From a plasmid: DNA of 64,000 nucleotides. A program made the position numbers. The stretch is from the sequence record NZ_CP095281.1, one strand, 5' to 3'. Positions 51,601 to 54,600 of this stretch are shown piece after piece. Each line of letters starts with the position of its first letter. Position 1 is the first letter of the stretch.

Positions 51601-54600
51601 AGGGGGGCCATACATCATGGCATTTACGTTGGCGGATCCAGAGGGAAAAGAGGACTTCCCCTTCTTCTCACCCTGCAAGGGGGCCATTGTTCCGATCTTA
51701 ACGAAAGAGCACCCGATGCCAGTTGATAGCCGTTTCGAGCGTGAGACGTTCAAGGCATTGCGAACTCTGGCAAGAAAAGAGCTGGAGTGCCAGAGATCAA
51801 TAACCGTTATCAAGCCTCTGAGTGACCTTGTTGCGCCGCTTTCTGGAGAGCCTTGCCGCCCAGATGCGGTGATCGAGTTCGGGGTCAGGAAAGTCATCGT
51901 CGAGGTGATGGGAAGTTACAGCGACGATTATAAGTTGAGTAAAGCTATCACACTGCCTCGTATGCGAGAGATCGCGCCGGTGATCGAGTTTGACGCCCTC
52001 GGCGCTGACTTAGATGGCCAGCTCAGGGAAGAGGCCATGAAGGTGTGCAGACAGGCTGTTGCGCAGCTTACCCAGGATCCCTCTGGAAGCACTGCAAGTG
52101 AGCCAGATCCAAGGGGGTAGAATGAAGAAACGACCAGGTGTATTCATGGGCTACATTGAGCAATTGGACGACCCCTGGAACATCAATCAACCACCCGGCC
52201 CGCAGGCGCTCCCTGAGATTTGCCTTCACATACCATCGATGCTGTTGAGGAAGCCCTGAAATGGCTGTTGCCAGCGACTCGTCAAATCTCGCTGGTGTGA
52301 TCACCCACCATCCCTCTTCGGCCCTCAGCATGGATATCCCTGGCCTGCCAGCAATGCCCTGGTGAACAACGGTTTTTCTTCTTGCCTTGGCCTGTCGGTA
52401 CCGAGCCCACGCCTGGATATAGAGCCGGCCTTTGTGTTGAGTCCCCATAGCATGATCCAAATGATCTTTGTGTTCCATCATGCTACCATCCGTGTGTCGA
52501 TAATAGTATTGTTGCTGCCATTATGATCCAAATCAGCCCGTCATTGATCAATTCCCTCGAGTCCATCGGACGCTCGTCAAAGCTCAGCGAGGCAGAGACG
52601 CAGGATGTGTTGGACGCGGCCAGAACGCTGCATTTTTTGAGAGAGGTTCTGACCACAATTGCAGTCGGCTACGACGTGGGAGACGCCACTCGTGATGAGC
52701 TGCTGCGGTGGACAGGGAGACTGCCTGGTCACGAACTTGAGCATACAGGTGAAGCCCTGCCTGATATGGAGCCACCAGTGCTACAGGTCGCCAACGTGCC
52801 ATGGGAGGATCTTCATATCCGGCTTCGGGACGGTCTTAATCGGCTTGCCAGAGAGCAGCAACTCTACTTCCAGATGATGCTGGGACAGCGTGACTCAGCA
52901 GGGCTCTGGTCTGCCTTGCGGGATGAAGGCCTGCTGACAGAGCAGCAGCTATCTCTACTGCAAGTCCAGCAGCCAACACCAGACTGGATACTCTCGATCG
53001 CTCAGGATGTGGTCGAGCGCATGGGGATTTTGTGATCATGACGAGAGATCATCGATAGATCATTGGATTCTGAGTGAAATCAGATTAAAATCAGAAGCTA
53101 TTGATTGTTCGAGTTTTGGGTGAAGAAGGGGGAAGGTATGGCTGCACTTGTTGAGCGCGCTGATCAGGTCATTTCTGCCACGGAAATGTCCCGGAACTTT
53201 TCTTCTAACATCAGTCGAATCGCCTCTGGCCAACAAGACCGACTGGTTGTGATGAAGGGCGGAAAGGCGTTGGCTGTTGTGATGTCCCTTGATGAACTCT
53301 ACCGCTTGCAAGGCGGTGAACAAGCGAGAGAAGTAGGCTAAAAAAGCAAAACCCGCATGGGGTCAGTTTGGCGACCATCCCCAGCGGGCTCGGAATCCCA
53401 ATTAACCAACCACTCTGCCGGCAAGCAGGTACATACGTTAAGGAGGTCAATTATGTAGAACATACCGAGGATTACTCGGCGGGCTAAACGTCCCGTATGC
53501 CGAGACGCTTTAATTCTTCAGTTGCAATGATAGCACTCTCCGTTTTCCGTGTGCAAGCTGCTGGCGATTTTTTGCGTCCCGATTTGTGTGTTTTTTGAAC
53601 TGGGAACACTGTGCCAGTGGCTGCGAATCAAAAATTGCAGTGCTGCAAATCCCTGACGCGGGTTTGCGATGCCTGTATCTAGAACAAAACCTAGTCATAA
53701 CGAGGCTGTGGCACGTAGACGAGCGTTTGTCGAACGCTCCTGCTATGTTGCTAACCCCAATCCTGCGTTTAGCGCGCCAGGTCACCATAAGCCGCATCGG
53801 CCGAAGTTCATCAAGTCATGTATGAACCTGGCGGCCTCTCGAGATGTCTGCTCCTGGGCGGGATTCACCCTATTGGAGGCGGTTGCCGGCCGCCGTCGCC
53901 ATTTCTATGTGCACGCGCGACGGGGCATGAATGCGATGGTGATGGCCATGCTGCACTATATGAACAGGGTCACATGGCAGGTCGAAGCGTCAGTGCATAC
54001 CCTGACGCTTCACTGCTCAATGGACACTACCTCTCGCGCTGGCAACCATTCGATAACCCGGGGAACCCGGCGGATTGTCGATCTTGAACGATTTGGCCTA
54101 GTTGAGTGCGAGAAGCACATAGATCAAAAGACAGGTGCCATTTATTTCAAGAGCATTGTGGTCACTGAGCGGTTCTTCGACATGATCGGTATGGATGTTG
54201 AAGTGGCGCTCCGTGAACGCAATACCGCATTCGAAAAATGGCGGAGCGATCAGAACCTGGGATTAGATATCTCGCTGTCCGAGATGGGCAGAATGTCTGT
54301 CACCGAATATAGCAGCCTGCGTAAACAGTATGTGGTGGCCAAGGCGTGGTCATTCCGCCATGACAAGAAGATAACAAAGGCACAGGTTCGCAGAGCAAAG
54401 CGTCTTGCTCAGAAACCTAAGGATGAACTGCGCAGGATCGTTGCTGAGGAGCTATTCCAGAAGACATCAAACTCAGCGCGTGACTTTAGCAGCGCAGCTA
54501 TTTCTGCATTTAATCGCCAAGTCGGCCAACGGATGCGCTATATATATGTTCTCGCTGTGGCAGATGATCCTCCAGACGATCCCCAGCCCCTGAATTAACC

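Follow-up and report, generated by a model that had tools for sequence, protein, structure and literature searches.

The replication circuits of R1 and pMV158 have been described (PMC5717011), as has the repC-RNAI-repB-repA organisation of IncL/M plasmids (PMC12365149). In the IncFII plasmids R1 and R100, a small regulator gene lies upstream of the initiator gene repA and is co-transcribed with it, an antisense RNA with a CGCCAA loop is made from the interval between the two genes, and a leader open reading frame (ORF) of about 24 codons has a stop that overlaps the repA start (PMC5717011). The IncL/M and I-complex (IncI/B/K) repY-repZ systems combine an antisense RNA directed against an rUUGGCG stem-loop with a coupled leader peptide, and IncL/M plasmids carry an upstream repressor gene, RepC (PMC12365149, PMC8125031). 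Here we analyse a 64,000-nucleotide stretch of the plasmid record NZ_CP095281.1, which we call the window, in which an initiator gene of the same Pfam family is preceded by a long leader and by a small gene whose product has the fold of the Phd/YefM antitoxins. We consider that this region is probably the basic replication-control module of a pAsa8-type Aeromonas plasmid.

By prediction the window shares each of the IncFII features named above, and it differs in the parts from which they are made. Its regulator has a Phd/YefM fold and is not CopB, and no second, CopB-repressed PrepA promoter was found. The predicted antisense RNA is about 180 nucleotides (nt) long and has extra 5' stem-loops, compared to the 92 positions of the CopA model, and some 220 nt separate its target from the leader ORF downstream, where in IncFII the target adjoins the leader ribosome-binding site (RBS). 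With the IncL/M and I-complex systems the window shares a predicted antisense RNA against the rUUGGCG stem-loop, a leader peptide of the coupled type and, in the position of RepC, a candidate repressor gene upstream. Unlike them it has a long spacer, no CGCC pseudoknot partner near the repA RBS and no match to the PK-repBA and PK-repZ models, and a Shine-Dalgarno sequence (SD) with a start-stop site stands where the classical leader peptide starts. The circuit that we propose follows the logic of pMV158 copG-repB/RNAII, with a single promoter, a repressor and rep operon and an antisense RNA to the cop-rep intergenic region (PMC5717011), although pMV158 is an unrelated Gram-positive rolling-circle replicon with a ribbon-helix-helix CopG and no leader-peptide coupling, and for the window autorepression is only a proposal.

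RepA of the window reaches 116.2 bits against Pfam IncFII_repA (PF02387; cutoff 22.9) and scores best with the NCBIfam model NF040977 (RepA_IncFII_LM; 149.6 bits, cutoff 70), while its 60 bits against the narrower incFII_RepA equivalog TIGR03474 are well under the cutoff of 446.9. By these profile matches it is a member of the IncFII/IncL-M RepA family, which bears out the RepA1-like IncFII-family initiator proposed in an earlier reading of the DNA (hereafter the sequence-only reading). Its identity to enterobacterial RepA proteins is 25-33 % (about 25-28 % to IncFII RepA). Between 52500 and 55000 the window is 99.2 % identical to A. salmonicida pAsa8 and 98.6 % to Aeromonas caviae pAsa8-b, and in these two records the three genes of the region are annotated merely as hypothetical proteins. 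The searchable literature holds no description of replication control in pAsa8, pAsa9 and their kin, and the pAsa8 paper is silent on replication.

We compared four plasmid lineages in all, among them the window clade (loci L013-L020), the ENA contig L026 and the rep_cluster_1169 clade (1169 clade), the last of which comprises pO23AP4, pAsa9-like plasmids, pAsa_2939, two A. caviae plasmids and one metagenome-assembled genome. The order parA, parB, hypothetical gene, Phd-like gene, leader of 330-580 nt and repA is kept in 10 distinct relatives. RepA of the 1169 clade is 24-26 % identical to that of the window, while the small Phd-like protein is meanwhile 43-51 % identical; across relatives this protein is 43-57 % identical to the window's. 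A profile scan of genome contigs with the Phd-like family returned 2 loci, and a metagenome pattern scan returned 120 matches with a pattern that was too loose, L052 being the sole real one.

An antisense RNA gene between the Phd-like gene and repA is well supported by promoter and terminator predictions, from which the ends of the RNA were deduced, and by conservation. A promoter scan reads the minus-strand site as TGCACA, 17 nt and TATCAT with a TG extension, and this is the sole promoter-like site in 52900-55000. The -35 element, the extended -10 element and the first ~10 transcribed bases are kept in all lineages with the flanks diverged. The sequence-only reading had pointed to 53400-53650 for an antisense promoter, and the predicted and conserved site lies at 53555-53527. 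A second and nearer candidate for the antisense promoter, with CATAAT at 53455-53450, is retained as a minor possibility only, since its -35 is poor and the 1169 clade has not kept it. In the relatives the antisense RNA would mostly be 168-192 nt long, and about 250 nt in pAsa9-like plasmids.

The dyad that follows the Phd-like gene, which the earlier reading had described as terminator-like, is indeed present, but its T-run lies on the minus strand only and we rejected it as a terminator for the Phd-like gene. A minus-strand terminator is called here both in the window and in pO23AP4 (L003), and the dyad would be the terminator of the antisense RNA and its target. In this terminal hairpin 98.6 % of alignment cells are paired, two pairs have changes on both sides and the CGCCAA loop is invariant in 10 distinct sequences. 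The conserved structure belongs to the minus strand: RNAalifold on nine sequences from three lineages gave -40.55 kcal/mol, 38 pairs and 5 compensatory changes for the minus strand, compared to -18.55 kcal/mol, 17 pairs and 1 compensatory change for the plus strand of the same region. The minus-strand consensus consists of a closing helix, two 5' stem-loops and the terminal hairpin, and many of its pairs are G-U, which would be C-A mismatches if read on the plus strand. The fold of the single antisense sequence has a z-score of -2.9.

The UUGGCG/CGCCAA loop agrees with the Rfam CopA consensus guCGCCAAAaUug as seen in a control locus, L021, and Asano et al. 1998, as cited in PMC10724649, name the rUUGGCG motif. 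CGCCAA/UUGGCG is the hallmark loop of antisense control in this replicon superfamily. L021 (2329-2448 of the 43.6-kb Enterobacter KPC plasmid p06C15002_B_KPC) served as the positive control for the Rfam scans. Its RepA is 33 % identical to the window's and its layout is the compact one of the I-complex and IncL/M, with the same CAGTTTGGCGAC loop, an antisense promoter just past the stem-loop, TCGCCA beside the start of repA (at +86) and, beginning about 30 nt after the stem-loop, an SD with a 17-codon leader ORF that overlaps a GTG-initiated repA. It matches PK-repBA with 56.7 bits, above the gathering score, and CopA with 36.9 bits. The backbone of this KPC plasmid is widespread.

The small gene upstream of the antisense terminator runs from ATG 53138 to TAA 53339-53341. 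Its longest frame would begin at TTG 53105, and ATG 53138 is most likely the start because a purine-rich SD precedes it and because the MAAL(I/V)ER N-terminus of all homologues matches. The protein scores 23.8 bits against Pfam PhdYeFM_antitox (PF02604), under the gathering score of 29.8, and 13.5 bits against TIGR01552 (cutoff 20.8); its close relatives have a precomputed PF02604 match. A profile of 8 homologues gave nothing significant against PDB sequences. An AlphaFold model built with 40 homologues has a predicted local distance difference test score (pLDDT) of 81.8 and a strand-helix-helix-strand-strand-helix secondary structure. Nearly all of the top ~40 Foldseek matches of this model in the PDB are YefM, Phd and RelB-type antitoxins (probability ~1.0, template modelling score 0.6-0.7, root-mean-square deviation 1.5-2.7 A). 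On the strength of these structural matches the Phd/YefM assignment holds for the predicted model at the level of the fold, despite the sub-threshold Pfam score. Apart from Phd/YefM, the protein has no Pfam or NCBIfam match at E<=0.1 and is thus not detectably CopB-like, and no further conserved ORF is found between 53036 and 53668.

Homologues fall into two classes, of 93-105 amino acids (aa) with a C-terminal extension and of 67-81 aa without it. A long form is followed at once by a ParE toxin in L029 (35.5 bits), and the Vibrio and Marinobacter plasmids have in this place a protein of 102-104 aa with 37 % identity to the L029 ParE; homologues paired with ParE toxins have 31-46 % identity. 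In the short forms the last ~25 residues of the toxin-paired proteins are missing, and in every retrieved context these forms lie directly upstream of an IncFII_repA gene. Among them, the homologues of the window clade are 90 % identical to the window's protein and that of L026 is 57 % identical. A profile made from five ParE-type toxins (four adjoining long Phd-like forms and the separate ParE of L026) finds no ParE-like ORF in six frames of the window, and where RelE/ParE toxins are annotated on related plasmids, each sits beside a partner gene of its own. The dN/dS of the Phd-like gene among members of the window clade is 0.07-0.13, by which measure it is under strong purifying selection. 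Because of the loss of the toxin tail, the absence of a ParE-like ORF, the dN/dS and the fixed place upstream of repA, the protein appears to be functional, not plausibly toxin-neutralising and part of the replicon. The fold, the absence of a ParE-like ORF and all relatives found thus uphold the claim of the sequence-only reading that a Phd/YefM gene without a toxin stands upstream of repA in place of a CopB-like protein.

PF02604 proteins are the largest group of ParE partners (PMC7848731). With the Phd/YefM antitoxins of Phd-Doc, YefM-YoeB and Phd-type/ParE the window protein shares the N-terminal DNA-binding and dimerisation fold; it differs in having neither an adjacent toxin nor the C-terminal segment (67 vs 93 aa) and in being fixed before an initiator gene. 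From the known DNA-binding role of the domain we infer that it may act as a transcriptional repressor. The one precedent for an antitoxin that controls copy number is PrpA: in PrpT/PrpA of pMBL6842 an antitoxin-type DNA-binding protein lowers plasmid copy number (PMC7848731). PrpA differs from the window protein in that it belongs to PF03693, has a ribbon-helix-helix N-terminus, keeps its ParE toxin and competes with Rep for origin iterons, rather than acting on rep expression. In Vibrio and Marinobacter plasmids a Phd-like (93 aa) and ParE-like (102-104 aa) pair stands directly upstream of an unrelated Replicase/PriCT_1 initiator gene (L006 3501-5728, L027 615-2849, L030 2753-4996), and the toxin-antitoxin (TA) module is therefore tied to rep genes of two families. 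This arrangement may be the ancestral state, or a TA-coupled replication control like that of PrpT/PrpA.

Since the target stem-loop starts 11 nt past the stop codon of the Phd-like gene, a repA mRNA that contains the target must begin within or upstream of this gene. The target abuts the stop, and the Phd-like gene and repA therefore share a transcript. The hexamers of the putative operon promoter are kept in all lineages, as TTGGAT-17-TATAAT in L026 and as TTGGAT-18-TATACT or TATAAT in the 1169 clade. L026 and both RepA clades have kept the repeat block at 53046-53095, which takes the shape of an 8-bp inverted repeat, GATCCAAT-N7-ATTGGATC, across the -35 in the 1169 clade. We infer that these repeats are an operator. 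No second, repressor-controlled repA promoter of the CopB type was found downstream of the Phd-like gene, and the scan, being consensus-based and so liable to miss a weak promoter, gave no plus-strand promoter-like site in 52900-55000, with none conserved in the alignments. By analogy, the simplest circuit would be an autoregulated cop-rep operon with an antisense RNA on the intercistronic leader, in the pMV158 copG-repB/RNAII logic and not the two-promoter R1 scheme. Of the hybrid circuit with IncFII logic that the sequence-only reading had envisaged, the initiator, the leader ORF and a predicted antisense RNA stand; a CopB-type two-promoter arrangement does not, none being found and the transcript being shared. 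Three GATC (Dam) sites cluster at 53030-53100, just upstream of or at the -35, with a fourth (GGATC) in related plasmids, and the cluster is conserved in other lineages. It hints at sensitivity of the operon promoter to methylation or SeqA.

Downstream of the Phd-like gene, the 327-nt leader has a Jukes-Cantor distance of 0.05 compared to a dS of 0.41 in the neighbouring gene. It changes about eightfold more slowly than synonymous sites, a rate which indicates that the whole leader is under selection. The spacer at 53561-53610 has 0 changes in 50 nt compared to L013 and L019. The AAGGAGG of the internal SD, which is located where a classical leader peptide would begin (53439-53447), is invariant in all relatives. 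The ATG-TAG that follows is kept in the window clade and L026, is replaced in pAsa9-like plasmids by a 3-codon ORF (ATG AAC GTT TAA) and is without a canonical start in the 1169 clade. Folding of the sense leader as a whole is not above the level of shuffled sequence (z-score -1.24). We rejected attenuation at the U-run 53591-53596, since no plus-strand terminator is called and pAsa9-like plasmids have no such U-run, and likewise the small ORFs 53357-53458 and 53497-53598, the reading frames of which are not conserved.

The coordinates that the sequence-only reading had assigned to the Phd-like gene, the leader ORF, the palindrome and the repA start are all correct. It had begun the leader ORF at GTG 53611 and ended it at TAG 53682, 14 nt inside repA. 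The leader is conserved; the start is not, with GAG in place of GTG 53611 in the nearest relatives L013 and L019, while the in-frame GTG 53617 is conserved and appears to be the better start. Equivalent ORFs of 21-31 codons with a stop 13-17 nt inside repA are found in all four lineages, with overlaps of 14 nt for the window, 17 nt for L026 and, counting from a conserved GTG after a GGAG SD, 13 nt for the 1169 clade. All indels in the leader ORF are multiples of 3 (3 and 15 nt). The peptide is not conserved except for the palindrome-encoded LQCC/LQDC, as expected if the act of translation alone matters. The predicted hairpin over the repA RBS (53642-53653 with 53660-53671) has a minimum free energy of -14.2 kcal/mol and a z-score of -2.05, and pairing of a C-tract with the SD is seen in every lineage, including L013, L026 (CCCC/GGGG) and the 1169 clade (CUCC/GGAG). 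A leader and a sequestered RBS are the anatomy of tap-repA, repY-repZ and repB-repA coupling, and are consistent with coupling in the window. In the pAsa8-b record (L001 9209) repA starts at a GTG that corresponds to window 53708, and some gene calls in relatives begin later still (259 aa). A repA start at ATG 53669 with an overlapping leader stop fits the conserved architecture better than GTG 53708.

The palindrome inside the leader ORF is repeated throughout the window, with 36 copies of TTGCAGNNCTGCAA at <=1 mismatch (17 of them exact) compared to 0.3 expected, which makes the KorB-like operator suggested by the sequence-only reading a reasonable idea. Two arrays, at 17153-18515 and 32554-35346, are built of ~190-200-bp repeats with one palindrome each and resemble centromere arrays such as sopC, and single sites occur both inside and between genes, including the 3' ends of parA and parB. 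In pO23AP4, which has a different backbone and a RepA of 24 % identity, there are 7 exact copies in 50 kb, mostly intergenic and one of them in the repA leader. Conservation is limited to the 14-bp core, and the flanks are not conserved. Between the two backbones the ParB proteins have 42 % identity and share a well conserved helix-turn-helix region; their match to the KorB domain is sub-threshold only. The pAsa9-like plasmids are without this ParB family and are the sole relatives in which the leader site is degenerate. The antisense promoter is about 100 bp from the leader palindrome.

KorB networks (IncP-1 RK2, IncU RA3) likewise have a 13-14-bp palindrome repeated around the plasmid, within and between genes. 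RK2 KorB represses trfA, and the RK2 OB site is TTTAGCSGCTAAA. The window differs in that its site is unlike RK2 OB, is present in far more copies and in arrays of 190-200 bp, and lies in an IncFII-type repA leader, ParB binding in the window being putative. KorB of the Aeromonas plasmid RA3 is a centromere binder and a global regulator (PMC7414963). The palindrome network of the window fits the sites of a ParB/KorB-type protein of this sort, and no paper containing the palindrome sequence was found in the searchable literature.

We propose the following model, which as a whole (operon, Phd-like repressor, antisense RNA, coupling and ParB/KorB-like site) we hold to be probable. One promoter at ~53063-53091 would transcribe the Phd-like gene, a 270-nt untranslated leader, the leader ORF and repA. 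The Phd-like protein would be a domesticated antitoxin that has retained the N-terminal dimeric DNA-binding fold and lost the toxin-binding tail and the toxin; its most likely targets are the repeats over its own promoter, and by binding there it would set the level of repA transcription, like CopG of pMV158 and CopB/RepC of IncFII and IncL/M. A constitutive countertranscript of ~180 nt, from 53520 to 53340, would use its CGCCAA loop to kiss the UUGGCG loop of the mRNA just past the Phd-like stop, and the contact would extend to a long duplex that buries the strong SD and the start-stop site. Our best guess is that this duplex blocks ribosome loading at the SD/start-stop site, or exposes the repA portion of the message to RNase III-type cleavage and decay. 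Either way RepA synthesis would be lowered in proportion to copy number. The repA SD and start would be held in the local hairpin and repA translated only when ribosomes read the leader ORF, and the leader palindrome would be bound by a plasmid-encoded ParB/KorB-like protein, which may tie replication control to a partition or global-regulation network.

Several observations weigh against parts of this model. The -35 of the operon promoter has 3/6 consensus positions and was missed by the promoter scan. In the covariation control for the terminal hairpin, 25/500 shuffles reached the observed score, and independent lineages are few. The Rfam models CopA (RF00042), PK-repBA (RF01089) and PK-repZ (RF01087) have no match in 52000-56000 (E<=1) or in 53300-53720 (E<=10); with no match to the CopA model, the antisense RNA lies outside the CopA family as modelled in Rfam, its business end being the same. 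The segment covered by the antisense RNA ends 90 nt upstream of the leader ORF, with the target ~220 nt upstream of it, and masking this segment leaves the accessibility of the leader and repA RBS nearly unchanged (0.28 vs 0.26 and 0.34 vs 0.37). An equilibrium structural switch was rejected on this account, masking being without effect on RBS accessibility in three lineages. Because of the distant target and the lack of an effect of masking, the mode of action given above is a tentative one. Which codon starts the leader ORF is uncertain, and the window clade has a weak SD before it. Finally, the link between ParB and the palindrome amounts to a single loss event, and the arms of the palindrome also join predicted mRNA hairpins.

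One alternative starts from the last point: the leader palindrome may act mainly as an RNA hairpin in the repA mRNA, that is as a coupling structure, and not as a protein operator here. In pAsa9-like plasmids the DNA palindrome is broken (TTGCAGTTATGTGA), yet the RNA helix is kept through two G-U pairs with 100 % of cells paired, and the SD/start region of repA is a pairing partner of the right arm in both the window clade and L026. The G-U retention, however, comes down to two transitions in one lineage, whereas the 36 copies cover coding and non-coding DNA and include two tandem arrays, and the 7 exact copies on a different backbone, with the 14-bp core alone conserved, have the signature of a DNA-binding site. 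We find this alternative somewhat unlikely, and the RNA and DNA roles are in any case mutually compatible. The Phd-like gene, for its part, might be a remnant or orphan antitoxin, serving in anti-addiction or as an antidote to a distant toxin, that stands beside repA by history and has no role in copy number. Its relatives are genuine ParE antitoxins, other TA toxins occur on related plasmids, and the Phd-ParE-like pair before an unrelated rep gene in Vibrio and Marinobacter means that the proximity could be ancestral rather than regulatory. But the short forms are without the C-terminal segment of the toxin-paired forms, which makes toxin neutralisation unlikely, the 64-kb window has no ParE-like ORF and the RelE/ParE toxins of relatives have partners of their own. 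An orphan would also have to be reconciled with the strong purifying selection, with a position and an abutting antisense terminator that are kept in four lineages despite ~75 % RepA divergence, and with an architecture that forces co-transcription with repA. An orphan antitoxin is therefore unlikely.

Two further alternatives concern the antisense RNA. Under the classical I-complex/IncL-M control, an RNAI of ~70 nt would prevent the UUGGCG loop from forming an activating pseudoknot with a CGCC tract near the repA RBS. The best score of RepA with the IncFII_LM model speaks for it, as does the loop motif, which is the same as in L021 with its PK-repBA match (56.7 bits) and its TCGCCA by the repA start. 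We consider it improbable all the same: a conserved complement of the loop is absent around the leader ORF and the repA start in all Aeromonas relatives, the models PK-repBA, PK-repZ and CopA find nothing in the window up to E<=10, the stem-loop is ~280 nt from the repA start, and no good promoter is near the stem-loop, the CATAAT at 53455-53450 having, as read from the sequence, a poor -35. Alternatively there would be no antisense RNA at all, the dyad ending transcription or stabilising the Phd-like mRNA and repA being controlled by proteins only (Phd-like, ParB-like, RepA autoregulation). The promoter and terminator scans do find about as many sites as in shuffled sequence, and Rfam finds none. 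Against this stand the T-run on the minus strand only, the -35, extended -10 and start region that are conserved between diverged flanks, the minus-strand specificity of the conserved structure, the hallmark CGCCAA/UUGGCG motif in the loop and an intergenic region that evolves ~8x more slowly than synonymous sites, which together render a locus without antisense RNA highly improbable.

Returning to the operon with its Phd-like repressor and antisense RNA, its components are of known kinds, namely an IncFII/IncL-M initiator, a CopA/Inc-type kissing loop, a coupled leader peptide, an upstream repressor gene and a ParB/KorB network. Undescribed in the searchable literature are the solo Phd/YefM-fold protein in the repressor position, the long multi-hairpin antisense RNA with its terminator over the regulator stop and its target far from the leader RBS, the global-regulator site in the leader, and their combination. 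A tentative scenario, possible rather than probable, is that a Phd-ParE module beside a rep gene, a setting still seen in Vibrio and Marinobacter plasmids, lost its toxin and tail, and that what was left, a DNA-binding domain, became the dedicated transcriptional repressor of copy number in a replicon of the IncFII/IncL-M type; to this would be joined an unusually long antisense RNA with several hairpins, which acts ~220 nt before the leader peptide by neither RBS occlusion nor pseudoknot blocking, and a ParB/KorB-type leader site coupling replication to partition or global regulation.

pAsa8, pAsa9 and related plasmids spread antibiotic resistance in Aeromonas of aquaculture and wastewater, and the annotations of these plasmids still list repA as a hypothetical protein. 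In our reading the region presents the IncFII/IncL-M scheme rebuilt from other parts, with an antitoxin-derived domain for CopB/RepC, a longer and distant antisense RNA and a ParB/KorB-like site in the leader. If the Phd-like repressor were confirmed, it would be a clear case of a TA component domesticated as a copy-number regulator, and the region would provide incompatibility determinants for typing these plasmids.

Table 1. Features of the replication region and its surroundings, in window coordinates
Feature	Position	Strand	Remarks
Candidate operator repeats	53046-53095		AGATCAT at 53046 and 53057, AATCAGA at 53078 and 53089; 11 bp apart in each pair; GATC-rich; read from sequence
Putative operon promoter	53063-53091	+	TTGGAT-17 nt-TAAAAT; would serve Phd-like gene, leader and repA
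Phd/YefM-fold gene	53138-53341	+	67 aa; no toxin, no C-terminal toxin-binding tail; candidate transcriptional repressor in CopB/RepC/CopG position
Predicted antisense RNA	53340-53520	-	~180 nt; CopA/Inc-RNA analogue; 3' end overlaps Phd-like stop codon
Target stem-loop / antisense terminator	53352-53388		UUGGCG in sense loop (53368-53373), CGCCAA on minus strand; U-tail 53340-53351
SD and start-stop mini-ORF	53439-53458	+	Strong SD TAAGGAGGT (53439-53447), then ATG-TAG; inside antisense-covered segment
Predicted antisense promoter	53527-53555	-	-35 TTGCAC/TGCACA, spacer 16-18 nt, extended -10 TGCTATCAT
Fully conserved spacer	53561-53610	+	U-run and weak leader-ORF SD GGGA (53602-53605)
Leader ORF	53611-53682	+	23 codons, GTG 53611 to TAG 53680-53682 (21 from GTG 53617); stop 14 nt inside repA
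Palindrome TTGCAGTGCTGCAA	53635-53648		Arms TTGCAG and CTGCAA around TG; inside leader ORF; candidate ParB/KorB-like binding site
Predicted repA RBS hairpin	53642-53671	+	Right arm of palindrome and CCC (53651-53653) pair with GGG (53660-53662) and UUUGCG; covers repA SD, reaches start codon
repA	53669-54598	+	IncFII/IncL-M family initiator, 309 aa
parA	48352-49077		
parB	49092-50213		Single intact gene of 373 codons in the window
Gene for 453-aa protein			Between parB and the 170-aa gene
Gene for 170-aa protein	52523-53035		Directly before Phd-like gene
H-NS-like gene	55047-55463	-	Downstream of repA
DUF6685 gene	55753-56694	-	Downstream of repA
Single palindrome sites (some 15)	9037, 10132, 13348, 20543, 25470, 28698, 31533, 44032, 45318, 46663, 49046, 50104, 57899, 59316, 60394		

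Downstream of repA, TGTGGATAA at 54861-54869, which on the opposite strand reads TTATCCACA, is a perfect DnaA box; it lies ~260 bp from the 3' end of the gene, and sits inside the inverted repeat CCGTTATC-TGTG-GATAACGG. Near it are AT-rich stretches (54737-54780) and GATC sites (54826-54835). The interval 54600-54900 is probably the origin of replication, a placement as in IncFII plasmids.

Among the neighbouring genes, parB is broken into two ORFs in pAsa8-b as opposed to the one intact gene of the window. H-NS-like and DUF6685 genes are found 3' of repA in both backbones, that of the window and that of pO23AP4 (L003, 5770-6192), with opposite orientations of the H-NS-like gene. pO23AP4 has an extra 82-aa gene annotated 'RepB'; the window contains no homologue of it. 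Elsewhere in the window, a 99-bp tandem repeat of 6 copies that are 96 % identical occupies 19770-20364, within a minus-strand ORF of 1264 codons (19061-22855).

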